From contig CAVSNY010000004.1 of the NCBI GenBank assembly GCA_963729605.1, positions 128,001 through 192,000 on the forward strand: 64,000 nucleotides of DNA, in the 5' to 3' direction. Below, piece by piece: positions 16,322 through 34,800 of this stretch (the stretch's first letter is position 1; every line of letters begins with the position of its first letter). A program made the position numbers and the translations under genes. A model generated the notes under the pieces. It did not search any database. It had not been told where the DNA came from and was given only the letters and a program-made list of their open reading frames with translations. The stretch comes from an uncultured Gammaproteobacteria bacterium. GTDB taxonomy: Bacteria; Pseudomonadota; Gammaproteobacteria; DRLM01.

Positions 16322-17159
16322 AACTTATCTCAAAATTGATTTTAAGAGTATTCGCCCCATATGACGCCTATGAACATTGATTATTTCCCGAGAAATATTG
16401 ATATGGAGCGCAAACGGTTAACCGGCTTGAAGCCTATATCCCAATTTTGAGATAGGCTCTATTTACCCATTTTTTACATCTAAACTTCGTATCGTTAGCA
16501 TTTATCACTACAGGCCATCTCTCTTTTGCACGCATCCGCTTTCCGTCACTCCCACGACGGGCCCCCTTAGATCACGCGCCCGCGGTCTCCGCGCTTTTTC
16601 TTCATCTTCGATCGCCTATGGCTTTGTCCTTTGCCGCAAAGATTGACTATATTGACCAGCGTTGGATTTGTCGGATTGTTTCTTTATGGGATCTGAAAAT
16701 TTGGGTCATGCGCTCATTCAAGGATGAGGCGGTTGTTGATCGATGAATGACCATGACCCGTGAAAGGCTGACCTGCGCGCAGTTTTTCATCGCTCCGTGG
16801 GCTGTTTTTTCCGCGCATCTCGATGCGTTGCAGCATGGAGAGTAGGGCGGGGCCTTGATCTCGTTGATGGGCATGTCCCCGATTAATGAGAACACCACTT
16901 GCGCCCCAATGGCATGTTGTGGAGAGCTTATTTTATTGAACTTCTGGCCTTTCTTGGGCTGCACTGGTATTCGGTAGGGGAGGTCAATTGATCCCGGGCC
17001 GTATTAAAACTACTTCCGCGACCACAATTTAAAATGTAGAGTGGTTCGAGTAGCCGATTGCTGTCGATCACCGATCGCTTTCGGAGAGAATAACCATTCT
17101 GCCAGGCCGCGTTGAGCGAATAATTGTTGGCGTCTGGCATAACGAAGAAAAATAATCGT

Positions 17160-18140
17160 ATGGATGATATTTCGCCTAGTGACCTAAAAAGCATTTTGCA
17201 TTCGAAGCGCGCCAATATTTATTATCTACAACACTGTCGCGTGTTGGTGAATGGCGGTCGGGTGGAGTATGTCACTGACGAGGGTAAGTCTTCCCGTTAC
17301 TGGAACATTCCGATCGCCAATACCACCTGCATCCTATTGGGAACCGGCACATCCGTCACCCAGGCCGCGATGCGCGAATTAGCGAAGGCCGGCGTGTTGG
17401 TCGGTTTTTGCGGTGGCGGCGGCACGCCGTTGTTCAGCGCCAATGAAGTGGATGTGGAGGTCGCCTGGTTATCGCCACAAAGTGAATACCGGTCCACCGA
17501 ATACCTTCAAAACTGGGTGCGATTCTGGTTTGATGATGCGCTGCGCCTTGAAGCAGCCAAACGTTTTCAGCAGGCGCGACTGCAACGTGTGGAGCAGCAG
17601 TGGCTGAACAGCCGTCCTCTCCGTGAGGCAGGCTTTGATATATCGCGCAATCTGCTCAAATCCTTGCTGGAACGTACCGCAGCTGCCATTGAAGTCGCGC
17701 CCAGTACCAATGATCTGCTCACCCTTGAAGCCCGTTTGACCAAGGATCTTTTTAAAATCGCCGTCCGCACGGTAGGGTATGACGACGAGTTTACCCGCGC
17801 TAAAAATGGCACGGGCTCTGATCCAGCCAATCGCTTTCTCGATCACGGCAATTACCTTGCTTACGGACTTGGCGCCACGGCTACGTGGGTATTGGGACTG
17901 CCTCATGGTTTGGCGGTGCTGCACGGAAAAACACGGCGTGGCGGTTTGGTGTTTGATGTTGCGGATCTGGTGAAGGATGCCACGATCCTGCCGCAGGCGT
18001 TTATCTCCGCCATGGCCGGACACGATGAACAGGAATTCCGCCAAGCCTGTATAGAAGGACTGACCCGCAGCGAATCTCTCGACTTCATGATCGACACCCT
18101 GAAGGTGATTGCATCGGAGTTGGGAGATAAGCCTCGATGA
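17160..18140 (+). CDS. cas1: Type I-F CRISPR-associated endonuclease Cas1
   Basis: MDDISPSDLKSILHSKRAN.., YWNIPIANT, NRFLDHGNYLAYG, HGKTRRGGLVFDVAD. Confidence 0.98.
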   Translation: MDDISPSDLKSILHSKRANIYYLQHCRVLVNGGRVEYVTDEGKSSRYWNIPIANTTCILLGTGTSVTQAAMRELAKAGVLVGFCGGGGTPLFSANEVDVEVAWLSPQSEYRSTEYLQNWVRFWFDDALRLEAAKRFQQARLQRVEQQWLNSRPLREAGFDISRNLLKSLLERTAAAIEVAPSTNDLLTLEARLTKDLFKIAVRTVGYDDEFTRAKNGTGSDPANRFLDHGNYLAYGLGATATWVLGLPHGLAVLHGKTRRGGLVFDVADLVKDATILPQAFISAMAGHDEQEFRQACIEGLTRSESLDFMIDTLKVIASELGDKPR

Positions 18141-21100
18141 ATGTTTTGCTCATTTCCCAATGCAGCAAACGGGCTCTGAGTGAAACCCGCCGCATCCTCG
18201 ATCAGTTCGCAGAACGCCGGGGTGATCGCACCTGGCAGACGCCTATCACCAGGGATGGGCTGCAAACCCTGCATAAAATGTTGCGCAAGACCGCGCGTAA
18301 AAACACCGCTGTCGCTTGTCATTGGATCAGAGGCAAAGACCACAGCGAATTGTTGTGGATCGTGGGTGATGCTACGCAATTCAATGCTCAAGGGGCCACG
18401 CCAACCAACACCACGCAGCGTGACGTGTTGCGCAGCCAGGATGAGAACGACTGGCACAGTGGCGAAGACATTCGTCTGATCGCCTCATTGGCGGGTCTAC
18501 TGCACGATCTGGGCAAGGCCAATGATGCCTTTCAAAAAAAGCTCAAAAGCAGAATTCCCTTAGCAGATGCCTATCGCCATGAATGGGTATCGCTACGACT
18601 GTTTGAAGCCTTTGTGGGCGGCAGCAGTGATGAAGCGTGGCTGCAACGCTTGGTTGAGCTGACACCGGAAAAAATGCCGGCCTGGTTAAATGAACTGAAG
18701 GGCGATGGCCTTGGTAAATCACAACAAGCAGGTCCGTTTAAAACCTTCAATAAAGCACCATTCGCAAGTCTCATAGGTTGGTTGATCGTCAGCCATCATC
18801 GTGTGCCGGCCCCGATAGGGAATGATCATCCTTCGTCGGAACAGCTTGGCGAACTGCCAAGAAGTATCGCTGCAAGTTGGTGTGGTGAACGAGAGGCAAA
18901 CGAACAAGAACGAGCGGCGTGTTGGTCGTTCAAAAAAGGCTTGCCCTTCGGCAGCAAGCATTGGTGTGAGCACGCCGGCAAACTTGCCAAAGTCATATTG
19001 CAACGCCCGCAGCTGCTTAACACCGACTGGTTTGAAAATCCTTACGTCGTACACCTCTCGCGCATGGCGCTGATGTTGGCGGACCATTACTACTCGGCGC
19101 AGGAGAGTCACAGCCGGTATGGCGACGCCGATTTTCCGCTGATGGCCAATACCCGCCTACGCGACGGCAATATTGCGGCTAATCAGCGCCTGGATGAGCA
19201 TCTGATCGGGGTGGAGGTCAACGCCAGTCGACTGATGCAAGCACTGCCGCGCATGGGTCGCCAGCTCCCCCGCATCGCCCGCCACAAAGGCTTTAGCCAG
19301 CGCAGCAAAATCCCCCGATTCCGCTGGCAGGATAAAGCCTTTGACCTGGCATCCGGCCTTCACAGCAAGAGCGGTGAACAGGGCTTCTTCGGCATCAATA
19401 TGGCCTCGACGGGGTGCGGTAAAACACTCGCCAATGGCCGCATCATGTACGGCTTGGCCGATCCTCAGCAGGGGGTGCGTTTCAATATCGCCCTGGGGCT
19501 GCGAACCCTCACGCTGCAAACCGGCGATGCCTATCGCACCCGTTTGGGCCTGGGGGATGAGGATATGGCCGTGCTCGTCGGTGGCGGCCCTGTCCGTGAA
19601 TTGTTCGAGAAACAGAAAGCGTTTGATCGACAGGAGAGCGCGCTCGCCCGGCGTGGAGCAGAATCCAGTGAAGGACTCATCCCGGAGAGTAATCACGTCC
19701 ATTTCGAAGGCAGCCTGGAGGATGGCCCGCTCAATAAATGGTTGGGCAGCAACCATGATGCGCAGAAACTGCTGAACGCGCCGATTCTCGCCTGCACCAT
19801 CGACCACCTGATGCCAGCCACCGAAAGCACCCGTGGCGGCCATCAGATTGCGCCCATGTTGCGATTGATGAGTTCAGATCTGGTTCTGGATGAGCCCGAT
19901 GATTTTGCCCTGGAAGATCTGCCCGCACTCACTCGGCTGGTGCATTGGGCCGGTATGTTAGGCAGCCGCGTGCTGCTCTCATCCGCCACGCTGCCGCCCG
20001 CATTGGTACAGGGCTTGTTCCAAGCCTATTTGGCAGGGCGCAGCGTCTATCAAAAGAATCGCGGTTTGCATGGATTGGCAATCAATGTTTGCTGCGCCTG
20101 GTTTGATGAATTCAACACGCAAAGCACTTTTTGTGACGCAGGGGACAATTATCTTCAGGCCCATTTACAGTTCGTAGAAAAGCGCCAGATCCAACTGGCC
20201 AACGCCGCACAGCAAGAGCAACGCCGCAAGGCAGTGATCAAGCCGCTGGAGATAGCCCCGGGGCAGACGCGGCCAGAGATCTGCAAAGCCTTGGCTGCCG
20301 AACTACATCAACACCTCCACGCGCTGCACGCGACTCACCACAGCCCCGACCCCGACACCGGCAAGCGCGTAAGTTTCGGCCTGATCCGCATGGCTAATAT
20401 CAATCCGCTGGTGCAGGTGGCTCAGGCGCTCTACACACTGGGCGGGCAGAACGATAGCCATATTCATCTCTGTGTCTACCACGCGCAGCATCCACTCCTG
20501 GTGCGCTCCGCCATTGAGAAGAGGCTGGATAAATTCCTTAACCGCAACGAAGGTCACGACATCTTTGCCGATGCCGAGCTGCGCCAGATACTGGACCACT
20601 CGGAGGAACAGAATCACCTCTTCGTCATCCTGGCGACCCAAGTCGCCGAAGTGGGCCGCGATCACGACTATGACTGGGCCATCGTCGAGCCCTCGTCCAT
20701 GCGCTCGATTATCCAATTGGCCGGGCGGGTGCGGCGCCATCGGCAAGGCACCGTGGACAATCCCAACGTCTACCTGTTGGATACCAACGTCCGGCATCTG
20801 GAGCATGGGCTGGGGAGTCCGGCATTCTGCCGTCCCGGTTTCGAAAACGATCACTTTAAATTGGAGAGTCATCGCCTCACTGACCTGCTGACGCCGGAGC
20901 AGTTGGCCGTCATCGACGCCAGCAGCCGCATTCGTGAGCGCGAACCATTAAACCCAAAACAGAATCTCGTGGATTTGGAGCACGCCAGTTTGCGCGATTT
21001 AATGTTAGGCGCGAACGAAGGACAGACGCAGGTACGTTCCGTAGTCACCCAGTGGTGGCAAACTCGAGTCAACCTCAGTGCCTATTTGCAAAGATGGGAT

Positions 21101-21427
21101 AAGCAACCGTTTCGTCATGACCCACAAGGCCGCCAGCGCTATGCCTTGTTGCTCGATGAGAATGGGCAGATTGAGTTTTGTCAGTACCTGCCCAATGGCG
21201 TGGTTAATCTCGTGAATGATCTTTTGCACCACGTGGAGCTCACGCAAGGCCCTCGCATCAGCTTTTGGGGGGCGCCTGATTACTTGGCGGCGGTGAGTGA
21301 GCTGGCGGCGCTTCTCGATGAGGACGAGGCAGCGTGCGCCCGGCGCTATGGCTACGTTGATCTGCCGGAGGATAAGAATGGAAAGGGGTGGAGTTACCAT
21401 GAGGCGTTGGGGTTTAGCGGGTGTTGA
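18137..21427 (+). CDS. cas3: Type I-F Cas2-Cas3 fusion nuclease/helicase
   Basis: N-terminal Cas2 (MNVLLISQCSKRAL..RKNTAVACHW), HD domain (LLHDLGKAN, RHEWVS, LADH), Walker A ASTGCGKT, DEPD, QLAGRVRRHR. Confidence 0.98.
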   Translation: MNVLLISQCSKRALSETRRILDQFAERRGDRTWQTPITRDGLQTLHKMLRKTARKNTAVACHWIRGKDHSELLWIVGDATQFNAQGATPTNTTQRDVLRSQDENDWHSGEDIRLIASLAGLLHDLGKANDAFQKKLKSRIPLADAYRHEWVSLRLFEAFVGGSSDEAWLQRLVELTPEKMPAWLNELKGDGLGKSQQAGPFKTFNKAPFASLIGWLIVSHHRVPAPIGNDHPSSEQLGELPRSIAASWCGEREANEQERAACWSFKKGLPFGSKHWCEHAGKLAKVILQRPQLLNTDWFENPYVVHLSRMALMLADHYYSAQESHSRYGDADFPLMANTRLRDGNIAANQRLDEHLIGVEVNASRLMQALPRMGRQLPRIARHKGFSQRSKIPRFRWQDKAFDLASGLHSKSGEQGFFGINMASTGCGKTLANGRIMYGLADPQQGVRFNIALGLRTLTLQTGDAYRTRLGLGDEDMAVLVGGGPVRELFEKQKAFDRQESALARRGAESSEGLIPESNHVHFEGSLEDGPLNKWLGSNHDAQKLLNAPILACTIDHLMPATESTRGGHQIAPMLRLMSSDLVLDEPDDFALEDLPALTRLVHWAGMLGSRVLLSSATLPPALVQGLFQAYLAGRSVYQKNRGLHGLAINVCCAWFDEFNTQSTFCDAGDNYLQAHLQFVEKRQIQLANAAQQEQRRKAVIKPLEIAPGQTRPEICKALAAELHQHLHALHATHHSPDPDTGKRVSFGLIRMANINPLVQVAQALYTLGGQNDSHIHLCVYHAQHPLLVRSAIEKRLDKFLNRNEGHDIFADAELRQILDHSEEQNHLFVILATQVAEVGRDHDYDWAIVEPSSMRSIIQLAGRVRRHRQGTVDNPNVYLLDTNVRHLEHGLGSPAFCRPGFENDHFKLESHRLTDLLTPEQLAVIDASSRIREREPLNPKQNLVDLEHASLRDLMLGANEGQTQVRSVVTQWWQTRVNLSAYLQRWDKQPFRHDPQGRQRYALLLDENGQIEFCQYLPNGVVNLVNDLLHHVELTQGPRISFWGAPDYLAAVSELAALLDEDEAACARRYGYVDLPEDKNGKGWSYHEALGFSGC

Positions 21428-21428
21428 T

Positions 21429-21460
21429 AAAAAAAGCCGGGGAAGTGGTTTGCCCCCTGG
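21429..21460 (-). terminator. Putative intrinsic terminator for the antisense crRNA-like transcript
   Basis: Minus strand reads CCAGGGGG..TCCCCGG (imperfect GC stem) then CTTTTTTT, 11 nt downstream of the second degenerate repeat. Confidence 0.5.
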
Positions 21461-21471
21461 TGAGCGGTGGT

Positions 21472-21539
21472 CTGCCTATGCGGCAGTGAATGTGAAATTT
21501 AAGTATTACTATTTCTAAGCTGCCTTTTCGGCAGGGACT
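21472..21539 (-). ncRNA. crRNA-like regulatory mini-array (degenerate repeat, 20-nt spacer, truncated repeat)
   Basis: Minus strand: AGTCCCTGCCGAAAAGGCAGCTTAGAAA / TAGTAATACTTAAATTTCAC / ATTCACTGCCGCATAGGCAG. Both repeats keep the CTGCC-N5-GGCAG Cas6f hairpin and the first keeps the CTTAGAAA handle. Confidence 0.85.
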
Positions 21540-21590
21540 AGATGTGGCGGTGCAAAGTATATTTTGTGCTGAGAAGTGTTGCTAGGAGTA

Positions 21591-21612
21591 TTTAAATTTA
21601 AGAAATACTAGG
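21591..21612 (-). promoter_or_regulatory. Predicted Cascade target of the mini-array spacer, with CC PAM
   Basis: Minus strand CC-TAGTATTTCTTAAATTTAAA is 16/20 identical to the spacer, with mismatches at positions 6, 8, 18 and 20. Confidence 0.8.
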
Positions 21613-21641
21613 TTGACAAGTGAAGTTCTGCTTCCTATTCT
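21613..21641 (+). promoter_or_regulatory. Sigma70-type promoter of the cas8f-cas5f-cas7f-cas6f operon
   Basis: TTGACA-N17-TATTCT, about 155 nt upstream of the cas8f ATG. Confidence 0.75.
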
Positions 21642-21796
21642 TTGAAACGACCTACACCGCAAGATTGCGCGATAAAGGGGCGTATCACTGTCTGGCAGAT
21701 GTCGTGTCAGAGAATAAGCAGTTGATCCGGAGTGCGTTGCTTCGGGCAAGTCATATCAAATGGACTCTTGATGGCACATATTTAGGAGACGCATTT

Positions 21797-23110
21797 ATGC
21801 CCCTTGTGAATAGTGAAGTGCCCGATGCGGAGAAGATCCGGGCGGTAATTGGTGTCTTTCTTCAAGAACGCCTCCAGCCCAAACTGGATAAGCTCAAAGA
21901 GGGTGAGGAGGAAAAGCGCCAGGAGCTGGTCGGGGCATATCTGCCAGAGACCTGGATTGCCGATGCTGCCCGGCGCGTTGGGCAGATTCAGCAGGTAACT
22001 CATGCGCTCAAATATATCCACTCTGATGCCAAAGGCACCAACCTGAGTGTCTTGGGTAATCCGCAGTCGGGAGAGTTGCTTGTCGGCACCCATACCGCAC
22101 CTGAACAATGCCCGCCCGATGTGGTGGGCAATGCGGCAGCGCTGGATGTTTATAAATTTCTGCGGCTGGAGGTGGATGGAAAAAACCTGCTCGCCAGGGC
22201 TGCCGGAAATGATCCAGCGATGCAGGCTGCTTTGTCCGCCAATAGCGAACTTGCTTCAGCATGGATGGAGAGCTTCGCCAAGCTTGCCGAAAATTCAGGA
22301 ACGCCTGCTTCGCATAAATTGGCCAAGCAACTCTATTGGCCGGTAGGCGATGGGCAATATCATCTGTTGTCCCCGTTGTTTCCCACCTCTCTGGTGCATC
22401 ATGTCTGGAGCACCGTCCGCGAAGACCGCTTTTCAGAAGCAGCCAAGGCGGCGCGTGATGCCCGGCGCAACGATCAAGCGCATCCCCACGGTTATCGTGA
22501 ATATCCCAACATGGTTATCCAGCAGTTCGGGGGAACCAAGCCCCAAAATATCAGCCAGCTGAATAGTGAACGCTACGGCGAAAACTATCTGCTCCGTTCG
22601 GTTCCACCGAACTGGCAGTCTGATCAGATTAAGCCGCCCTTGCGCGTAGAGAGCGTATTCGATGGCTGGTTTGGCCGCCGTCTTCGCGTGAAGGAACTGA
22701 TGCGCATCCTGCGTGAGTTTCTCTATAGCGTGCAGGATGTCAACAACATGCATATTCGCAACAAGCGCATCGAACTGGTGGGTTATATCGTCGATGAGAT
22801 GCTGTCATTCGCGGCGGAGCTGCGCGACATCGAAGAGAGCTGGACGCTACAGAAGGAGTGCAGGCTCAACATCAATGAGCAGTGTTGGTTCAATCCTTAT
22901 CGAACTCATGAGGATGAAGAGTTCCGGAAAACGTATGTCTGGGGTGATTGGAAAGAGGCGGTGTGTAAACGCTTTGCCAATTGGTTGAATGCGGGACTGA
23001 GGGATCCCAAGAATCCGTTGCCGTTTGGCGATGCAGCTGCGGATCAATGGCAATCGGATTTAGATAAGGCGCTACGTATGCTGCATCTGGAGGTGGCGAG
23101 TTATGAATAA
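21797..23110 (+). CDS. csy1: Type I-F Cas8f (Csy1)
   Basis: AGGAG RBS before MPLVNSE; THALKYIHSDAKG, DVVGNAAALDV, AKQLYWP, GGTKPQNISQLNSER. Confidence 0.96.
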   Translation: MPLVNSEVPDAEKIRAVIGVFLQERLQPKLDKLKEGEEEKRQELVGAYLPETWIADAARRVGQIQQVTHALKYIHSDAKGTNLSVLGNPQSGELLVGTHTAPEQCPPDVVGNAAALDVYKFLRLEVDGKNLLARAAGNDPAMQAALSANSELASAWMESFAKLAENSGTPASHKLAKQLYWPVGDGQYHLLSPLFPTSLVHHVWSTVREDRFSEAAKAARDARRNDQAHPHGYREYPNMVIQQFGGTKPQNISQLNSERYGENYLLRSVPPNWQSDQIKPPLRVESVFDGWFGRRLRVKELMRILREFLYSVQDVNNMHIRNKRIELVGYIVDEMLSFAAELRDIEESWTLQKECRLNINEQCWFNPYRTHEDEEFRKTYVWGDWKEAVCKRFANWLNAGLRDPKNPLPFGDAAADQWQSDLDKALRMLHLEVASYE

Positions 23111-24062
23111 TCCCAATGCCGTCATTCTTCTTCCGCGTTTACAGGTGCAAAACGCCAACGCCATTTCCGGCCCGCTGACCTGGGGATTTCCGCCGCCCAC
23201 CGCCTTCGCTGGATTCATGCACGCCATGCAGCGCAAGGTGGCTGACGAACTCGCGCTGAGCTTCGAGGGGGTGGGTGTGGTCTGCCACCGTTTTGAGCCG
23301 CAGGTCAGCCGCCCCGCCGGTAAATACACTCAGGTATTTAATCTTACCCGTAATCCTTTGACAAAGGAGGGCGACACCGCCGCCATTGTGGAAGAGGGAC
23401 GTGCCCACATGGAGATAAGTCTGCTCATCTCTATTCGAGGCCGTATTGATAGTGATGAAATTGAATTTGTCGCCCAACGCTTAATGAGCGCTGCACATAC
23501 CATGCGTTTGGCTGGTGGAAGTATCCTGCCGCAACGGCAGGGGAATCGTTATAGACCGCAGCTTCTTACCCTGCCGCCAAGCGAGGTGGAACGCGATACC
23601 CTCTTCCGCAAATTAAAGCGGCGCTTGCTGCCTGGATTTGCACTGGTGCAGCGTGAAGATCGCTTGGCGGACCATTTGCGTGAAATGCGAGCGAGCAATG
23701 CCGAAGCGCATGCCCTGGATGCGTTGCTCGATCTCACGCGGTTGAATTATGAACCGCCCAATCCCGACAAACTAGAAGAGAGCCAATGGCGTATCCGTTC
23801 GCGCCCTGGTTGGCTGGTTCCAATTCCGGTTGGTTATGCAGCCATATCGCCGCTCTATCAACCGGGTGATGTGACCAATGCTCGCGATGACGGTACGCCA
23901 TTCCGGTTTGTCGAAAGCGTCTACTCATTGGGCGAGTGGGTGAGTCCGCACCGTTTGACTTCGTTGCAACAATTCTTATGGCATCACTATTCAGATGTAG
24001 AGCGTGGAGTTTATTACTGTGTGAATCACTATTCAAAACATCAACAACACAACGTCGTTTAA
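23103..24062 (+). CDS. csy2: Type I-F Cas5f (Csy2)
   Basis: [46 protein letters not shown]. Confidence 0.97.
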
Positions 24063-24073
24063 GGAGAGGCATC

Positions 24074-25102
24074 ATGGCAGAGATTAAAACCGCTTCCGTA
24101 TTGGCATTCGAACGTAAACTCGACCCCTCCGACGCGCTCTTTAGCGCAGGCCGTTGGGATGACAGGAGTAATGGTCATCAATGGCCAACGGTTGAGATTC
24201 GCCCAAAATCGGTGCGCGGCACCATATCAAACCGTCTTGCCACCAAGGACCAGGATCCGGCAAAACTGGATGCTTCTATTCAGGCCCCTAACCTGCAAAC
24301 AGTGGATGTGGCGACATTGCCTAATGACGCAGACACCCTGCGCGTCCGTTTTACACTCAAAGTGCTCGGTGGGGCTGGAAAACCCTCTGCATGTAACAGT
24401 ATGGAGTACCAACAACAATTACAGACTACCGTTAAACAGTATGTCGAGAGCCATGGTTTTTCTGAGTTGGCGCGTCGCTACGCTCATAACATCGCCAATG
24501 GCCGCTTCTTGTGGCGCAACCGTTTGGGTGCTGAGCAAGTGGTAGTGCAGGTCAACCATCTCCAGGAAGGCAGGAAGACCCAAGGCTGGCAATTCGACGC
24601 GCTGAAGTTTTCGCTCCGCGATTTTGAAATTCCCGCCTCCGCAAAAGCCGACTTCGAAGAGTTGGTGCGGGTGATCGAAAATGGTCTCCACGGAGAGGCG
24701 TTTGCGTTGCTGGAGATCATCGCTTACGCTCGCGTCGGCGACGGCCAGGAGGTCTATCCATCCCAAGAACTGATACTGGATCGCGGTGATAAAAAGGGCC
24801 AAAAAAGCAAGACCCTTTATCATGTAGATGATGTCGCTGGAATGCATAGCCAAAAAATCGGCAACGCGCTGCGCACCATCGACACCTGGTATGAAGATGT
24901 GGACGGCATCGGCCCCATCGCGGTGGAGCCCTATGGCTCGGTCACATCACAGGGAAAAGCTTATCGACAACCCAAACAAAAAATAGATTTTTATAACCTC
25001 CTCGATAATTGGGTACTCAAAGGTAAAACACCGGAACAAGGCCATCAGCACTATGTCATGGCGACGTTGATTCGCGGCGGCGTATTCGGCGAGAAGGACT
25101 GA
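24074..25102 (+). CDS. csy3: Type I-F Cas7f (Csy3)
   Basis: AGGAG RBS; [47 protein letters not shown]. Confidence 0.98.
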
Positions 25103-25105
25103 GCC

Positions 25106-25672
25106 ATGGATCATTATCAAGACATACAGATACTCCCCGATCCGGAGTTCCAGACCCCTATGTTGATGAATGCCTTGTTCGCCAAACTACACCGAGCGTT
25201 GGTGCAGCTTGGCAGCACTGTCATTGGTGTCAGTTTTCCAAAAATGGATAATCAGAAACCAACTCTGGGAAGGCTGTTGCGCCTGCATGGAACCAAAGAG
25301 GCACTGCGGATACTGGGGGAACAACGCTGGTTGAATGGGATGAGAGATCATATAGAGGTTGATGAAGTGATGCCTGTTCCAACTGACGCGCAACATTGTC
25401 GAGTAAAAAGAGTGCAAGCCAAATCCAGTGCCGAACGGCTGCGGCGCCGCTACTGTAAACGCCATCAGGGGACGACCGAGCGGGATGCCATCGCAGTCAT
25501 TCCTGACGGTGTAGAGGAGCATCTTTCGCTGCCATACCTGCACATCAAGAGCGAAAGCACCGGACAAAGCTTTCGCCTGTTCATAGAACACCAAGCGCCC
25601 CAACCGCAAGCGACCAAGGGAGAATTCAACAGCTACGGGCTCAGCACTCAGGCAACAGTTCCCTGGTTTTGA
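25106..25672 (+). CDS. cas6f: Type I-F Cas6f (Csy4) crRNA endoribonuclease
   Basis: MDHYQDI..LFAKLHRAL (catalytic His), GVSFP, Arg-rich helix ERLRRR, FNSYGLS..TVPWF. Confidence 0.98.
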   Translation: MDHYQDIQILPDPEFQTPMLMNALFAKLHRALVQLGSTVIGVSFPKMDNQKPTLGRLLRLHGTKEALRILGEQRWLNGMRDHIEVDEVMPVPTDAQHCRVKRVQAKSSAERLRRRYCKRHQGTTERDAIAVIPDGVEEHLSLPYLHIKSESTGQSFRLFIEHQAPQPQATKGEFNSYGLSTQATVPWF

Positions 25673-25800: not shown

Positions 25801-28800
25801 GTTCACTGCCGCGCAGGCAGCTTAGAAAATTGCGCGGCCAGCGGCGGCCGGGCCGGGATCGTTCACTGCCGCGCAGGCAGCTTAGAAAAACGGAGATACC
25901 GACCGGAAATTGATTTAATTGTTCACTGCCGCGCAGGCAGCTTAGAAATGAGGCGCTTTTCCTGCTACTGTTCCGACAACGTTCACTGCCGCGCAGGCAG
26001 CTTAGAAAACCACAATTACGGTGATTCCGCTGCAAGTCGTGTTCACTGCCGCGCAGGCAGCTTAGAAACGATGTATCGCGGATTCCTGATTAATGCGGAT
26101 GTTCACTGCCGCGCAGGCAGCTTAGAAACAGCCATCACCGCCACCACCACCAGCGCCATGTTCACTGCCGCGCAGGCAGCTTAGAAAACAACTTCGCTGC
26201 TTGCGTCGGACACGTATCAGTTCACTGCCGCGCAGGCAGCTTAGAAACAACAAATAGGCGAGTGAGCAAACCGCTAATAGGTTCACTGCCGCGCAGGCAG
26301 CTTAGAAATGGGCCGACGACCGGCGGAGATTGAAAAAGCTGTTCACTGCCGCGCAGGCAGCTTAGAAAGCCGAGGTACTCTTCAACGGTTATCGCATTGG
26401 GTTCACTGCCGCGCAGGCAGCTTAGAAAAAATTCCGCGATAAATGCCGATATTAATTCATGTTCACTGCCGCGCAGGCAGCTTAGAAAGCACGGCCGACC
26501 TTGACGCTCGGTAATAATACGTTCACTGCCGCGCAGGCAGCTTAGAAATTATATTTCAACAGCTTACCATCATATGCAAAGTTCACTGCCGCGCAGGCAG
26601 CTTAGAAATGGAAACGGGCGAACAAGCGCAGATGATCGTAGTTCACTGCCGCGCAGGCAGCTTAGAAATTTTGGTAACGGTAACATATCGGCGCAAATTC
26701 GTTCACTGCCGCGCAGGCAGCTTAGAAAGCCCACGGTGAACGGCACAATTAACCAAATTCGTTCACTGCCGCGCAGGCAGCTTAGAAAGAACGTCACGCG
26801 CTTTTTTGACCCTGAGAAAAGTTCACTGCCGCGCAGGCAGCTTAGAAATGCGGCAAATCGCCGCGATGAAGCGCGTATCGGTTCACTGCCGCGCAGGCAG
26901 CTTAGAAAAAGCCCCCACAAAAACGGCAGGGGGGCGCGATGTTCACTGCCGCGCAGGCAGCTTAGAAAATGTGCGCCAAAGCGGATGGTAAGGCCGAAAA
27001 GTTCACTGCCGCGCAGGCAGCTTAGAAAAGCATTACCGGATTCGTGCGCGCGTACTTGCTGTTCACTGCCGCGCAGGCAGCTTAGAAATAGAACGTTGGC
27101 GGCTGAAATGATAGTAACGCGTTCACTGCCGCGCAGGCAGCTTAGAAAACATCGCCGATTCGTTCGACGCTCTCCCCCAGGTTCACTGCCGCGCAGGCAG
27201 CTTAGAAAAATCGTCAGGAGCGGACAAAACACCATCGATTGTTCACTGCCGCGCAGGCAGCTTAGAAACCAGCGAGCAAGACGCCGTCAGGAACTGACAG
27301 GTTCACTGCCGCGCAGGCAGCTTAGAAAGTCGGCGTTGACGGCCTCGAGCGAGTGGAACAGTTCACTGCCGCGCAGGCAGCTTAGAAAAAAACCATCACC
27401 GACACCGGCGCGGGCGTCGAGTTCACTGCCGCGCAGGCAGCTTAGAAAGTAGTAATAGGGAGAAATTGCAGCATAAAAAGGTTCACTGCCGCGCAGGCAG
27501 CTTAGAAAAGCATTACCGGATTCGTGCGCGCGTACTTGCTGTTCACTGCCGCGCAGGCAGCTTAGAAAGCGCCCATATCGCCCGTGTAACGACCGCTTAA
27601 GTTCACTGCCGCGCAGGCAGCTTAGAAAGCCACCAACCCGCAGCGCATCACGCTCTTCAAGTTCACTGCCGCGCAGGCAGCTTAGAAAAGCTCAACGTTC
27701 ACCGCGACGCGGCGCACCGAGTTCACTGCCGCGCAGGCAGCTTAGAAATCGAATACCAGCGGCTACCGTTCGCCGCCACCGTTCACTGCCGCGCAGGCAG
27801 CTTAGAAATGCGGCAAATCGCCGCGATGAAACGCGTATCGGTTCACTGCCGCGCAGGCAGCTTAGAAAGCACAGCATAGCAGGGAGAAAAATTCCATTGG
27901 GTTCACTGCCGCGCAGGCAGCTTAGAAAACCACGGACAACGCGAGTTTTCATGAAAAAACGTTCACTGCCGCGCAGGCAGCTTAGAAATCCACCGACCGG
28001 CGTACAATTTGAGTCTTATGGTTCACTGCCGCGCAGGCAGCTTAGAAATTCCAGTGGGATGCCCAAACTCTTGAGGTCGAGTTCACTGCCGCGCAGGCAG
28101 CTTAGAAAACCACCCGAGGCGACGGCAGCTTCTAAATAATGTTCACTGCCGCGCAGGCAGCTTAGAAAAGGGTCACAACTGCTACGGCACCGACGATCTA
28201 GTTCACTGCCGCGCAGGCAGCTTAGAAAGACATGCTGCGGCCGTTGTTACTCGCCCTCGCGTTCACTGCCGCGCAGGCAGCTTAGAAAGGCACCACGCTG
28301 GCCGCATTCCGCCACACGTCGTTCACTGCCGCGCAGGCAGCTTAGAAAAAAATGCAAACACTGTGCAAATTTACCGCATTGTTCACTGCCGCGCAGGCAG
28401 CTTAGAAACACACCGTGGTGTTCGATGCGCCCAACGCCTTGTTCACTGCCGCGCAGGCAGCTTAGAAAAAGCCGGGCGCCACCATTCAGCTGGCCGTGGG
28501 GTTCACTGCCGCGCAGGCAGCTTAGAAAGCCATGTCGGCCAAAATTTCCGCCGCCTCTTCGTTCACTGCCGCGCAGGCAGCTTAGAAAAAACGCCGGCGA
28601 ATTGGTTTGGGTTGGAGCCAGTTCACTGCCGCGCAGGCAGCTTAGAAAATGTGCGCCAAAGCGGATGGTAAGGCCGAAAAGTTCACTGCCGCGCAGGCAG
28701 CTTAGAAAAATCACGTGGACAACCAAGGACGGAACGATATGTTCACTGCCGCGCAGGCAGCTTAGAAATGGCACACCAGGGAGGCCGGCAGCATTTCCTG

Positions 28801-31800
28801 GTTCACTGCCGCGCAGGCAGCTTAGAAATCAAATTTTATTGCATGGAGGCTTGTAGGCACGTTCACTGCCGCGCAGGCAGCTTAGAAACCCGCCAAGCCT
28901 CTTAATTGTGATAGCTACCCGTTCACTGCCGCGCAGGCAGCTTAGAAAACGCCACCCGCTCGTGGACAATGGTGCAGACCGTTCACTGCCGCGCAGGCAG
29001 CTTAGAAAATCACCCAACGCCAGCCCACGGGCAAGCGTTAGTTCACTGCCGCGCAGGCAGCTTAGAAAACACGCCGGTTTTAAATTCAAGGTCAAGAAAG
29101 GTTCACTGCCGCGCAGGCAGCTTAGAAAGTGGTCAAGACCGGCGGTAATCGCTGGGGCCAGTTCACTGCCGCGCAGGCAGCTTAGAAAATGCCAGTGGGC
29201 GAGACCATGCGGACGGTCACGTTCACTGCCGCGCAGGCAGCTTAGAAAAAGTAAAGGCATCTCACGTTGTTTCATGGCAGGTTCACTGCCGCGCAGGCAG
29301 CTTAGAAAAAAAGAAGGCGATCAACGCGCTCGCCACCAAGGTTCACTGCCGCGCAGGCAGCTTAGAAACCACCATCCAATGTCGTCGCGCGGCTTGATCC
29401 GTTCACTGCCGCGCAGGCAGCTTAGAAATGATAGCAGCGCCGTTTATTTCATCAACTAGCGTTCACTGCCGCGCAGGCAGCTTAGAAACGGACGATAAAA
29501 GCGGCGGCGCGCTCATTGTCGTTCACTGCCGCGCAGGCAGCTTAGAAAGGTGACGTGGGGGAATGGGCTTTAATGTCTAAGTTCACTGCCGCGCAGGCAG
29601 CTTAGAAAGAGCGGATCAAGCACAATAACGCCGATTCCGCGTTCACTGCCGCGCAGGCAGCTTAGAAATAACGATGGATTAATCCGCGAATTTTGCATAA
29701 GTTCACTGCCGCGCAGGCAGCTTAGAAAGTAATGGCCAACGCAAAACTTAACCCACTCATGTTCACTGCCGCGCAGGCAGCTTAGAAAGTAATGCAGATT
29801 GAGAGCGAGTTCGCTGAGCCGTTCACTGCCGCGCAGGCAGCTTAGAAAACGGGGAAAATGACTTCCGCCGTCGGCGGCCCGTTCACTGCCGCGCAGGCAG
29901 CTTAGAAACGATGAGGAGCGCAGCGCGATGGTATTGCCCGGTTCACTGCCGCGCAGGCAGCTTAGAAACAATGGGACAGCCTCAAGCGTTTGGTGCAGGG
30001 GTTCACTGCCGCGCAGGCAGCTTAGAAATCGGTCACTGGCGCGGCGTCCAAGATCACCGTGTTCACTGCCGCGCAGGCAGCTTAGAAAAAGAGGCCATGG
30101 CCTTATATGAGGAGGAGGCAGTTCACTGCCGCGCAGGCAGCTTAGAAAACGGCGTGCCAATTTCGTTTTCTCTCAATAGGGTTCACTGCCGCGCAGGCAG
30201 CTTAGAAAAGACCAACTGGAGAGTCGTGTGACCCCGCTGGGTTCACTGCCGCGCAGGCAGCTTAGAAAAGCCGGTAGCCTGGTGAGAGGTTCACGCCATG
30301 GTTCACTGCCGCGCAGGCAGCTTAGAAATGGAAGACATGGAAGAGGGAATCCGCGCAGGCGTTCACTGCCGCGCAGGCAGCTTAGAAAGGCGGGAATCAC
30401 AAGGAAGAGGCGCACGAATCGTTCACTGCCGCGCAGGCAGCTTAGAAATCCACCGCTACGTGGTCAGGCGTCACAGCAAAGTTCACTGCCGCGCAGGCAG
30501 CTTAGAAATCTTCGACGTCTCGGCGCGCCGCCTTCCACTGGTTCACTGCCGCGCAGGCAGCTTAGAAAAGGAAGTACGTTCGTAACAGGCGAACTCAGAA
30601 GTTCACTGCCGCGCAGGCAGCTTAGAAAGCAACCGGCGACATGGATATTTACGGTAATCTGTTCACTGCCGCGCAGGCAGCTTAGAAAGCGCAAAAATTC
30701 GCGTTAAAGGAAATAAAGTTGTTCACTGCCGCGCAGGCAGCTTAGAAATATCACGCGTCCCGCAATAAAGATGGTTTCGGGTTCACTGCCGCGCAGGCAG
30801 CTTAGAAAATGACGCCGGCGGGCACGCCGGTATCGCAGGCGTTCACTGCCGCGCAGGCAGCTTAGAAATCCCTAACTGCGCGTGGCGATCGTCGTCGCGC
30901 GTTCACTGCCGCGCAGGCAGCTTAGAAATGTTTGTCCAGGCGCCACAGCCGGTCGGATAGGTTCACTGCCGCGCAGGCAGCTTAGAAATCCTGCCGCGTG
31001 TATCCGTACGCGTCCATAAAGTTCACTGCCGCGCAGGCAGCTTAGAAAGGGAAGGTGGCCGGCGTGCCGCGGAGCGCGGCGTTCACTGCCGCGCAGGCAG
31101 CTTAGAAATTTGAATCCGCCGCCAAGCCGTTGGCCGATCCGTTCACTGCCGCGCAGGCAGCTTAGAAAAGCCCAAGGCGCACACTCAATTGTTCCAATAA
31201 GTTCACTGCCGCGCAGGCAGCTTAGAAAGATTGGTGCGGGCGTAGCGGCGCGCGCATCCGGGTTCACTGCCGCGCAGGCAGCTTAGAAATCCCGACGATC
31301 TCACCGCGATGGTGCTGGGGTGTTCACTGCCGCGCAGGCAGCTTAGAAAGGGACCGCAATGAAAACATGGGCGGCGCTTTCGTTCACTGCCGCGCAGGCA
31401 GCTTAGAAATGTGGCGCTCTTCTTTTTCAAACAATTTATAAGTTCACTGCCGCGCAGGCAGCTTAGAAAGGAAACGGAAGGGACGACGACGACTTTTAAA
31501 CGTTCACTGCCGCGCAGGCAGCTTAGAAAGGAAAGAAATTATATGCTTTTGAAAAAACCGAGTTCACTGCCGCGCAGGCAGCTTAGAAAACAGCGCGCCA
31601 TGGCCCGGAGCAAGTACGCCCGTTCACTGCCGCGCAGGCAGCTTAGAAATCGGGCGGCAAATACAACTTGAGCCTATCCGCGTTCACTGCCGCGCAGGCA
31701 GCTTAGAAAAAGCAAGAAAACGGGACGGGTGCGGAGCATGAGTTCACTGCCGCGCAGGCAGCTTAGAAATCTTTGCTGATGTATTTAGCAATGTAGTTGC

Positions 31801-34800
31801 CGTTCACTGCCGCGCAGGCAGCTTAGAAATGCTGGGCTCTTTCTACGCTCATCAAGCCTATGTTCACTGCCGCGCAGGCAGCTTAGAAAATCATTTCCCA
31901 CGTATGAGGCGCGGGACATGAGTTCACTGCCGCGCAGGCAGCTTAGAAATCGGGCAGTTCGTCCACCGCCCAGGTGAGCCGGTTCACTGCCGCGCAGGCA
32001 GCTTAGAAACCGAAGTACCGTTTGACGTGCTGATCGAGTCTGTTCACTGCCGCGCAGGCAGCTTAGAAATAGTGCGGTCTGGGATGCAGTCGCGCGCGTG
32101 TGTTCACTGCCGCGCAGGCAGCTTAGAAATCTGGATAAAGGCGCAAAATAATTAGTTTGAGGTTCACTGCCGCGCAGGCAGCTTAGAAAATGTTGCTCCC
32201 TGGTTTTCAAATACATCGACCGTTCACTGCCGCGCAGGCAGCTTAGAAATACCGCAGCGCCAGATAAAGAGCCTTCCAACGGTTCACTGCCGCGCAGGCA
32301 GCTTAGAAAGCTTGGCAGTTCGAGCCTGTTTTAAATTGTGTGTTCACTGCCGCGCAGGCAGCTTAGAAAACCAACGTGTACAAGTTCGATACCGACCTCG
32401 GCGTTCACTGCCGCGCAGGCAGCTTAGAAAAACGTGAAAACCTTCACGGACGCGATCACCGGGTTCACTGCCGCGCAGGCAGCTTAGAAAGCGACGAAGT
32501 AAACGCAAAGCCCACCGCTATTGTTCACTGCCGCGCAGGCAGCTTAGAAAAGGCACGTTGCTTGATAACCTAAATTGGTAATGTTCACTGCCGCGCAGGC
32601 AGCTTAGAAAAAGCGTAAACGGCACAATAAACCAAATTCGATGTTCACTGCCGCGCAGGCAGCTTAGAAAGATTCGCCCGCTTCGTCCACGAAAATGGCG
32701 CAGTTCACTGCCGCGCAGGCAGCTTAGAAAAGAAAGCGCCGCCCATGTTTTCATTGCGGTCCGTTCACTGCCGCGCAGGCAGCTTAGAAACGGACGATAA
32801 AAGCGGCGGCGCGCTCATTGTCGTTCACTGCCGCGCAGGCAGCTTAGAAATTCATGGAGTCGGCCTATAACGGCGGCGCGGGGTTCACTGCCGCGCAGGC
32901 AGCTTAGAAAATTTCACAAATGCCGAAAGAAACGCGCGATTAGTTCACTGCCGCGCAGGCAGCTTAGAAAAGTTACCAAACGGGCCAGTAATGCCGAAAC
33001 TTGTTCACTGCCGCGCAGGCAGCTTAGAAATATCACTCGGCCCGCAATAAAGATGGTTTCGGGTTCACTGCCGCGCAGGCAGCTTAGAAATGCTGGGCTC
33101 TTTCTACTCTGATCCGGCCAATGTTCACTGCCGCGCAGGCAGCTTAGAAATTGCTCTTTATGATGAGGCTCAGCGCATTTTTGTTCACTGCCGCGCAGGC
33201 AGCTTAGAAAATCACGGCCAGCTTGGGCGCATGCGATAAAAAGTTCACTGCCGCGCAGGCAGCTTAGAAAACCAAGACCGGAATCCCATTCCTCAAGCTC
33301 AAGTTCACTGCCGCGCAGGCAGCTTAGAAATACTCGGCGTCGTATTTATGTCCGCAGAACGGGTTCACTGCCGCGCAGGCAGCTTAGAAAATGTGGAATT
33401 GGACATTGCGGGCGCCGGTCCTGTTCACTGCCGCGCAGGCAGCTTAGAAATATGCGCGACGCGGTGGCCTTCTGGCTTGACCGTTCACTGCCGCGCAGGC
33501 AGCTTAGAAAGACATGCTCGTGCTCGAGGCCCTAGATTTGTCGTTCACTGCCGCGCAGGCAGCTTAGAAAAACTGCAATGGGGGACGCAATCATGATCGA
33601 AAGTTCACTGCCGCGCAGGCAGCTTAGAAATCGGCCATCAGCTGTTCGCGAGTGGTGTGCAAGTTCACTGCCGCGCAGGCAGCTTAGAAAAAAGTTGTAG
33701 ATAAAGACAAATCCATCGCTTAGTTCACTGCCGCGCAGGCAGCTTAGAAATCAGGCCGGCGGCGGTACACCCGCCGCGTCGTGTTCACTGCCGCGCAGGC
33801 AGCTTAGAAACCATGTCGTGCTGCACTTGATTTGATACGTGCGTTCACTGCCGCGCAGGCAGCTTAGAAATGTCCAGGTTGTCAATCTCGATGTTATTGC
33901 CTGTTCACTGCCGCGCAGGCAGCTTAGAAAAGGCGCGACGACCGCCGGGAGAGACTGAGACGGTTCACTGCCGCGCAGGCAGCTTAGAAATTCAAAAAAT
34001 CCTGGAAGAGGATGGAATCATTGTTCACTGCCGCGCAGGCAGCTTAGAAAGGTGGGCGCCAGCGGCGCCGGAAAACCTCTTAGTTCACTGCCGCGCAGGC
34101 AGCTTAGAAATGCACATCCCAGGCGCTCACGTCTGGCAATACGTTCACTGCCGCGCAGGCAGCTTAGAAAAAGGTAGCGGTGGATTTCGACCCGGATAAA
34201 GACGTTCACTGCCGCGCAGGCAGCTTAGAAAAAAGAATGCGAGCAGGTTGGATTCAACGAAAAGTTCACTGCCGCGCAGGCAGCTTAGAAAAAAGAATGC
34301 GAGCAGGTTGGATTCAACGAAAAGTTCACTGCCGCGCAGGCAGCTTAGAAAGCCGCCCCTTAAACCGCCACTTCATTTTTCGAGTTCACTGCCGCGCAGG
34401 CAGCTTAGAAAATAATGCAGGTCGGCGATACGCAGGGGGCGGCGTTCACTGCCGCGCAGGCAGCTTAGAAAGTGCGGAACACGACGAACGCCGACGCGTT
34501 GCCGTTCACTGCCGCGCAGGCAGCTTAGAAAATGATCGAAACGAAAGCGGACGATGTGCCGGAGTTCACTGCCGCGCAGGCAGCTTAGAAAGAACAGCAA
34601 TAAAGCTCCGTCAGGCGCGGGAGGTTCACTGCCGCGCAGGCAGCTTAGAAAGTGCGCGCCCGGGTGGCGGAGGAGATCGAGCAGTTCACTGCCGCGCAGG
34701 CAGCTTAGAAAGAACGCGGCGAGCATGATCACAAATAAAATGCGTTCACTGCCGCGCAGGCAGCTTAGAAACTCGGTCTTGCCACTCCCGGCGCGGCCCA

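Follow-up and report, generated by a model that had tools for sequence, protein, structure and literature searches.

Between the cas2-3 and cas8f genes of a type I-F1 CRISPR locus, in a 64,000-nucleotide (nt) stretch of genome from an uncultured gammaproteobacterium (the whole stretch is called the window below, and positions are counted from its first letter), we find two divergent repeat-like units around one spacer-like sequence, inside the cas locus and apart from the main array. The spacer-like sequence matches a target that is flanked by a CC protospacer-adjacent motif (PAM) and directly adjoins the only promoter candidate of the cas8f operon. In our judgement, the element is probably a type I-F1 regulatory mini-array, that is, a CRISPR RNA (crRNA)-like gene of the CreA/CreR kind, which was once part of a CreTA module and would now serve mainly to let the Cas proteins repress their own synthesis.

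Anatomy of the guide gene and its target

The element and its target consist of the following features, in which the repeats are compared with those of the canonical array further downstream.

21539-21512, minus strand: psiR1, a degenerate I-F repeat, AGTCCCTGCCGAAAAGGCAGCTTAGAAA, with 6 mismatches to the array repeat
21511-21492, minus strand: psiS, the 20-nt guide, TAGTAATACTTAAATTTCAC
21491-21472, minus strand: psiR2, a repeat remnant, ATTCACTGCCGCATAGGCAG, with the 5' part and the Cas6f hairpin only
21460-21429, minus strand: predicted intrinsic terminator for the guide gene, with a GC stem and, after it, a T-run (terminator scan and fold)
21561-21556 and 21584-21579, minus strand: candidate promoter of the guide gene, with a -10 box TATACT and a weak -35 box TAGCAA (by eye)
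21612-21611 and 21610-21591, minus strand: target, with the PAM CC and the protospacer TAGTATTTCTTAAATTTAAA, which matches the guide at 16 of 20 positions
21613-21641, plus strand: predicted promoter TTGACA-N17-TATTCT (consensus scan, 10/12)

Besides the Cas6f hairpin CTGCC-GAAAA-GGCAG, psiR1 retains an exact copy of the 8-nt 5' handle CTTAGAAA (21519-21512), and the 8 nt that follow the stem of psiR2 (ACCACCGC) are unrelated to this handle. The predicted mature RNA, running from 21519 to 21472, would be 48 nt long, and both hairpins are present in the minimum-free-energy fold of its predicted precursor. An earlier note on this DNA had placed psiR1, the spacer, psiR2, the target and the promoter at these positions and had held that only the parts needed for a mature crRNA, namely both stems and the 8-nt handle, are kept; each of these sequences was found again on the strand given, with the handle exact and both hairpins folding. 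The minus-strand terminator and the TATACT box, which lies 16 nt upstream of psiR1, are additions to that note. Because the plus strand has no T-run at this place, the terminator is directional, and hairpins after psiR2 are also seen in many related loci. A canonical CRISPR array, in which near-identical repeats alternate with spacers of about 32 nt acquired at a leader, was considered and rejected: psiR1 and psiR2 are unlike one another as well as unlike the array repeat, they enclose a spacer of 20 nt, and they are encoded on the opposite strand. With the Rfam model CRISPR-DR4, psiR1 and psiR2 score 26.5 bits (E 0.0011) and 19.5 bits on the minus strand, against a gathering score of 35; therefore, standard finders would miss both, as had been foreseen for array finders.

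The mismatches between guide and target fall at guide positions 6, 8, 18 and 20, so that 15 of the 17 positions outside those flipped in Cascade are matched. A scan of 21300-21900 returned one sigma-70-like site only, and this site begins at the base after the PAM; the earlier description of a 16/20 match with mismatches including 6 and 18, and of a PAM abutting TTGACA-N17-TATTCT, is thereby confirmed. The transcription start of the cas8f operon is predicted near 21648, and the target lies about 150 nt upstream of cas8f. As the targeted promoter is the only candidate between cas2-3 and cas8f, Cascade directed to this site would hold down its own production. In addition, the end of the protospacer is 6 bp away from the putative -35 box of the guide's own promoter, and a complex bound there may dampen the synthesis of the guide as well.

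The match between guide and target is not a product of chance, and the guide matches this target better than any other CC-flanked site in the genome of 3.48 Mb. The score of the guide on its own target was reached by none of 200 shuffled spacers and by none of 24 spacers taken from other loci. The sequence CC-TAGTA occurs at 26 sites genome-wide, among which the target is the best, with 15/17 non-flipped positions matched, followed by a runner-up with 12/17. The hairpin motif CTGCCG-N4-GGCAG, which is expected 0.13 times per window by chance, is found on the minus strand only in psiR1 and psiR2 and in one palindromic match inside csy2. One could nevertheless regard the element as a chance resemblance, as a stray remnant of an array end or as a guide for a target in trans, because its Rfam scores are below threshold and the AT-rich region raises the number of random 20-mer matches. 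Against this stand the controls just given, the uniqueness of the best genomic site, and the conservation of both architecture and covariation in 24 other distinct loci described below; we consider these explanations highly improbable.

The surrounding type I-F1 locus is complete and lies on the plus strand, with NCBIfam equivalogs in the window all far above their cut-offs; the genome, in 7 contigs, has 61% GC.

17124-18140, plus strand: cas1 (NCBIfam)
18137-21427, plus strand: cas2-3 (NCBIfam)
21797-23110, plus strand: cas8f/csy1, starting with ATG at 21797 (NCBIfam equivalog)
23103-24062, plus strand: csy2 (NCBIfam equivalog)
Ending at 25102, plus strand: csy3 (NCBIfam equivalog)
25106-25672, plus strand: cas6f (NCBIfam equivalog)
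21797-25672, plus strand: the putatively regulated operon cas8f-csy2-csy3-cas6f
25801-43590, plus strand: canonical I-F array with 297 repeats and 296 spacers

The array repeat, GTTCACTGCCGCGCAGGCAGCTTAGAAA, is exact in 295 of the 297 copies. At least one spacer of the array is duplicated, the same one following the repeats at about 26998 and about 27478, and an open reading frame (ORF) starts directly after the last repeat; we take its product to resemble an OrfA transposase of the IS3 type. A start of cas8f at GTG 21620, which would add 59 residues, was rejected because the homologues listed mostly have 430-442 amino acids (range 414-469), and is also disfavoured by the NCBIfam model, which begins at residue 48 of the 437-residue Cas8f. 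A protein-coding reading of the cas3-cas8f intergenic region was rejected as well, as its ORFs are short and unsupported.

Covariation of guide and target in related loci

A DNA search with the intergenic region in 60 related genomes found no homologue, and its only matches were to an ordinary I-F array in one of them (G015). At the protein level, a metagenome scan with the single Cas8f sequence found no loci, and a scan with a Cas8f alignment then gave 80, with Cas8f 46-71% identical. A Cas8f scan of genome contigs contributed one further locus, L024 (58% identity), in which the cas3-cas8f spacer is without a repeat-like hairpin. Of the resulting 81 loci (L024-L104), 28 have a repeat-like hairpin at most 900 nt upstream of cas8f; this number is a lower bound because several loci (for example, L069, L080, L090 and L091) have less than 300 nt upstream of cas8f. 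The analysis covered 26 of these 28. L039, with a palindromic hairpin 42 nt from cas8f and no handle, and L042, with a repeat-like unit on the plus strand, were left out; L066 and L068 are spacer duplicates of L065 and L067, leaving 24 distinct guides, or 25 with that of the window. The plus-strand unit of L042 (about 2375-2430), with the handle-like sequence CTTAGGAT and a distance of about 77 nt to cas8f, represents a variant in another orientation.

The family members share one architecture on the strand opposite to cas8f: psiR1, a guide of 18-33 nt, psiR2 with the canonical stem and, often, a terminator hairpin. The handle of psiR1 reads CT(T/C/A)AGAAA, and 19 of the 25 have a -10-like hexamer no more than 30 nt upstream of psiR1. 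The 5-bp stem of psiR1 is fully paired in 21 of the 25, in 11 of these through changes on both sides, and the covarying stems include CTGCT/AGCAG, CTACC/GGTAG, CTGCA/TGCAG, CTGCG/CGCAG and CTGTT/AACAG. Guide lengths fall into groups of 18-20 nt (n=9), 24-27 nt (n=10) and 30-33 nt (n=6), roughly in steps of 6 nt, as would be expected if whole Cas7f subunits were dropped.

For all 25 guides, a CC-flanked partial match on the same strand lies between psiR1 and cas8f, and each guide outscores all shuffled versions and all foreign guides at its own site. The number of matching loci by guide position is 25 at each of positions 1-5, 6 at position 6, 18-24 at positions 7-11, 12 at position 12, 21-25 at positions 13-17 and 4 at position 18, and matching is at background level from about position 24. 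This profile is the 5+1 periodicity of Cascade, in which the flipped positions drift freely, and the useful pairing between guide and target ends at about 17-23 nt. In the locus with the guide closest to that of the window, L030, the mini-array is 84% identical (E 1e-12). Its guide departs from that of the window at positions 14, 16, 17 and 19, and each of these four changes has its counterpart in the targets of the two loci. Compensated differences were also found between L065 and L071 (positions 13 and 14) and between L041 and L045 (positions 3, 9, 19 and 27).

The contact between PAM and promoter recurs across the family. In 14 of the 25 loci, a TTG-type -35 box that agrees with TTGACA at 4/6 positions or more begins 0-3 nt past the GG of the PAM, as read on the plus strand, and is followed 16-18 nt on by a -10-like box; at control GG sites in the same regions, such a -35 abutment was seen in 161 of 3174 cases (5.1%). 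In the window the offset is 0. The comparison of related I-F loci, which the earlier note had proposed for detecting covariation, yields, in addition to covariation, the 5+1 periodicity and the recurrent abutment of PAM and -35 box. In L041, L045, L092 and L098, the target lies 23-55 nt from the start of the cas8f match; because this leaves no room for another gene, the guide in these loci must act on cas8f itself. In the leader of L029, at about 400-470, the guide has a tandem pair of CC-flanked targets spaced by 23 nt, and a TTGACA -35 box lies 2 nt from the proximal target.

These comparisons also bear on the possibility that the element is a decaying relic, in which both the toxin and the guide circuit are eroding, the guide no longer binds its target usefully because of the seed mismatch at position 8, and the cas operon is controlled in some other way. 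The mismatch at position 8 in the seed, the weak -35 box of the guide promoter and the decay of the CreT part (see below) would agree with such a state, as would the fast turnover seen in a related strain. The latter came from a comparison with contigs of four DNA sequencing runs at 80% likeness. One near-identical contig (X5) spans 21570-21889 with 1 difference. In a related strain (run X1), the flanking cas genes and psiR1/psiR2 aligned, about 9 letters are inserted inside the spacer and nothing aligned across about 21536-21686, with a second piece beginning at 21687; this pattern fits a fast turnover of the core formed by guide, target and promoter. Against a relic stands the intact state of the terminator, the PAM, the handle and the two hairpins, along with pairing at 15 of 17 positions, and the position-8 mismatch is shared by L034 and L056. 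Moreover, the compensation in the target of all four differences from the L030 guide indicates selection on pairing after the two loci diverged. We therefore regard the relic explanation as unlikely.

A CreT-like unit in the leader

The stretch between the predicted promoter and cas8f bears on where the element came from. CreT-like units are present in 11 of the 24 related loci, with L065 and L071 as probable further cases. Their Shine-Dalgarno (SD) sequence is strong and in most cases AAGGAGG; a short ORF then begins with ATG or GTG and bears a codon pair near its end, and after it comes a strong hairpin of -19 to -34 kcal/mol, as a rule with an AUUUUA-like tail. By codon pair, the loci divide as follows.

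AGA AGA: L029, L030, L043 and L067
TTA TTA: L056, L059, L061 and, probably, L071
TTA AGA: L055
TTA AGG: L095
GGA ATA: L081
CCT CCG, then stop: L084
TTA CTA: L065 (probable)

A check of AGA, TTA and AGG found these three codons to be rare in the adjoining cas8f of their loci; for example, cas8f contains 0-1 AGA against 23-33 four-box arginine codons in the AGA loci, and 0-3 TTA against about 47-49 other leucine codons in the TTA loci. The mini-ORF of L084, a locus with a Cas8f about 50% identical to that of the window, reads ATG AAA CCT CCG TAG, with AAGGAG before it and a hairpin of -28 kcal/mol after it. Between its CreT-like unit and cas8f, at about 290-520 of the leader, L030 has a further small ORF of about 75 codons that begins with MDNYHVTKKGEKW.

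The window contains a unit of this kind that looks decayed:

21675-21749, plus strand: decayed CreT-like unit (MAFFT with L029 and L030; blastn)

In a blastn search with 21642-21796 against the 81 loci, matches were confined to the equivalent unit in L029 (E 0.004) and that in L030 (E 0.014); with MAFFT, 21650-21750 can be aligned to both. The SD remnant in the window is AAGGGG (21675-21680), in place of AAGGAGG in L029 and L030. In the homologous mini-ORF frame (21688-21717), a 3-nt gap deletes the ATG, so that the start is CTG (21688-21690), and the codon pair reads AGA GAA (21709-21714), followed by TAA, instead of the AGA AGA found in L029, L030, L043 and L067; AGA is the rarest sense codon of the genome, at 1.46 per 1000. 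A second frame, from ATG 21699 to TGA 21725, contains AGA ATA and is without an SD at working distance. The hairpin (21722-21749) is retained, with a core identical to that of L029 at 19 of 20 nt; at -15.4 kcal/mol (60 nt after the stop) it is weaker than in the relatives, and the U-rich tail is missing. The related strain (run X1) aligned from 21687, including the CTG position, and showed no difference there among the rows listed, a hint that the decay did not arise from an error of assembly.

As the leader is homologous to CreT-like units, the element most likely descends from a CreTA module and is not a pure Cas-autoregulator. This qualifies the earlier interpretation of the element as a unit for self-repression by CRISPR interference: the guide gene and its PAM-bearing target at the promoter stand, and the view of a pure Cas-autoregulator probably does not, since the homology of the leader to CreT had been missed. 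Rfam returned no match on the leader, and its fold is not significant (z-score -1.02). In the predicted fold, the SD remnant AAGGGGCGUA (21675-21684) pairs with the start region of cas8f, UAUGCCCCUU (21795-21804); such a pairing could mask the cas8f start codon, or it may be due to chance, considering the z-score.

The homology raises the question of whether the module is still an active CreTA addiction module, in which a CreA guide has as its main task the silencing of a functional toxin in the leader (21648-21750), and control of cas8f is a side effect of the promoter that both share. Several features would speak for a working toxin. The hairpin is kept in a leader of CreT-like descent; AAGGGG stands 7 nt before the homologous frame, and L095 has a similar G-rich SD with a GTG start; the homologous frame contains two AGA, a TCT and a TGT, all among the four rarest codons of the genome; and the ATG frame bears the consecutive pair AGA ATA. 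In addition, a preprint describes the P. aeruginosa CreTA1 promoter as shared with the csy operon (10.1101/2024.10.29.618823). However, mutagenesis of published toxins found a strong SD, an AUG or GUG start and two consecutive rare codons each to be critical (Cheng 2021, PMC8501985; Wang 2026, 10.64898/2026.06.02.729485), and the window has a CTG start, a broken pair AGA GAA, an ATG frame without an SD and none of the relatives' U-rich tail. By these published criteria, with the start and the tandem codons lost, the toxin of the window looks inactive, and the loss of the U-tail favours read-through into cas8f. We thus give little credence to a still-active addiction module, and favour a former CreTA module that is now used mainly for Cas autorepression.

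Proposed mechanism and relation to known systems

By analogy with the published systems and with established I-F biology, our preferred reading, autorepression of the Cas operon by a short guide, would work as follows. The guide gene would be transcribed on the minus strand, convergently with cas2-3, from the candidate promoter near 21556-21584 to the terminator at 21460-21429. Cas6f would cut the transcript after both hairpins, releasing a 48-nt RNA made up of the 8-nt handle, the 20-nt guide and a 20-nt hairpin, and the short guide would assemble a shortened Cascade with two Cas7f subunits fewer than are used with a 32-nt spacer. This complex would read the CC PAM at 21612-21611 and form a short R-loop over 21610-21591, which is AT-rich and corresponds to about -37 to -56 of the promoter, while Cas8f would occupy the adjacent -35 hexamer and block RNA polymerase; the pairing would be too short to license cleavage by Cas2-3. 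As the predicted promoter would read first through the leader of about 150 nt and then through cas8f-csy2-csy3-cas6f, the result would be a negative feedback on Cascade, relieved either when crRNAs from the 296-spacer array titrate the complex or when anti-CRISPR (Acr) proteins act. The crRNAs competing with the guide for Cas proteins would be supplied by the 297-repeat array.

Several points weigh against this mechanism or limit it. With regard to binding, the seed mismatch at guide position 8, which only 3 of the 25 family members have, could weaken the interaction, and the target lies upstream of the -35 box and not over the core promoter. With regard to transcription, both the cas8f promoter and its start site were predicted by a consensus scan, the -35 box of the guide promoter is poor (3/6), and read-through from cas2-3 could give cas8f transcripts that escape control. 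The family was chosen by a strict hairpin pattern for psiR2, which makes the conservation of psiR2 in 25/25 circular. As for the origin and the loss of the toxin, the leader is linked to CreT-like units by short alignments (E 0.004 and 0.014), a toxic action of the relatives' units is suggested by their likeness to published CreT, and the ATG frame with AGA ATA (21699-21725) may leave room for residual toxicity.

Several known systems resemble the element in part. In type I-F systems, Cracr RNAs with guides of 17-21 nt load Csy proteins and repress cas or creT promoters (10.1101/2024.10.29.618823), and the 20-nt guide of the window belongs to the size class reported there with four Csy3 subunits and with escape from AcrIF24. 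However, Cracr RNAs are encoded by phages and plasmids and serve counter-defence, whereas the element of the window lies inside a host cas locus. A scan for such viral mimics with a degenerate pattern of handle and seed returned 15 viral contigs, none of them with a repeat-like context, and these hits are thus chance matches in AT-rich DNA.

The haloarchaeal CreTA modules, with AGA-AGA in H. hispanica and AUA-AUA in H. hubeiense, owe their toxicity to a strong SD with an AUG/GUG start, to a pair of rare codons in succession and to a stem-loop, all of them critical (Cheng 2021). The same toxin logic, under a promoter repressed by Cascade, is seen in the loci related to the window. The haloarchaeal modules differ in belonging to type I-B, in being archaeal and in having unrelated sequences, and in the unit of the window three of the four critical toxin features are lost or altered, the start and the codon pair being lost and the SD changed to AAGGGG. 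CreR, which is validated for types I-B, I-E and V-A and is represented in I-F by manual predictions only, mediates an autorepression of cas genes that senses both crRNA load and the action of Acr proteins (Liu 2023, 10.1101/2023.03.10.532045). It is a stand-alone degenerate mini-CRISPR with a guide partially matching a cas promoter, and its function is the one proposed here for the element of the window; in contrast to CreR, this element is accompanied by a toxin remnant and is not stand-alone by descent. The earlier attribution of the concept to CreA/CreR was right.

In P. aeruginosa, two pairs, CreA1/CreT1 and CreA2/CreT2, have been described, in which the CreA RNAs are antitoxins of proline-codon toxins; the cas2-3/csy1 spacer there holds an SD, a 15-nt mini-ORF with two proline codons and a GC hairpin (Wang 2026). 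As in CreA1, the 20-nt psiS of the window would give a 48-nt RNA, and the handle of psiR1 and both psiR hairpins are kept; as in the P. aeruginosa CreTA, the site is the cas2-3/csy1 intergenic region, with an SD-like sequence, a mini-ORF frame and a GC hairpin downstream. The mini-ORF of L084 (15 nt, with two proline codons and a stop) matches the description of the P. aeruginosa toxin. On the other hand, the -35 box lies about 30 bp from the target in P. aeruginosa and 0 bp from it in the window, the relatives of the window mostly have AGA-AGA or TTA-TTA instead of the two proline codons, and the toxin unit of the window looks inactivated. A wider reading, which we hold to be possible but somewhat doubtful, is that the window represents a natural transition from CreTA to CreR, and that one homologous toxin scaffold with interchangeable codon pairs (AGA-AGA, TTA-TTA, TTA-AGA or TTA-AGG, and CCT-CCG) runs through environmental I-F loci. 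The toxin may have been lost, in its start, its tandem codons and its U-tail, while guide and target kept co-evolving, so that an autorepressor with a 20-nt guide remains. If this is true, the P. aeruginosa toxin with its proline codons and the rare-tRNA toxins would both be forms of a single lineage and not separate inventions, and the short guide would form a Cascade with four Cas7f subunits that stays beyond an AcrIF24-like grip, so that the feedback sensor would work during an Acr attack.

The closest known systems are the I-F1 mini-arrays located between cas3 and cas8, among which the case of P. aeruginosa YL84 has been validated with a reporter and repression without cleavage has been proposed as the mode of action (Shmakov 2023, PMC10120712). 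The element of the window resembles them in its position, in its orientation antisense to cas3, in its two divergent repeat-like units, shortened spacer and CC PAM, in a target within the predicted cas8 promoter region and in the mismatches at sixth positions. It differs from them in its uncultured-type host with 61% GC, in a Cas8f at most 71% identical among the loci compared (the closest Cas8f proteins, P0001-P0006, are 72-94% identical) and in guide and target sequences of its own, and its PAM touches the -35 box directly. Elements of this kind, placed between cas3 and cas8 in this orientation and having a shortened spacer and mismatches at sixth positions, are already described for I-F1 systems, and in this respect the earlier note overrated the instance. 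As both mechanism and genomic position have been published, the instance itself adds little biologically. For annotation, the locus can be described as I-F1 with a regulatory crRNA-like gene and a toxin remnant, which gene callers and array finders leave unreported. At the level of the family, novelty may lie in the placement of the PAM on the -35 box, in codon pairs exchanged on a common scaffold and in a guide that still covaries next to a decayed toxin. The added value, which is modest, lies in 25 independent natural pairs of guide and target with the 5+1 profile, in the recurrent contact of PAM and -35 box and in the clustering of guide lengths at about 20, 24-27 and 30-33 nt; together with the CreT-like leaders, this comparative set bears on the evolutionary relation of CreTA and CreR.

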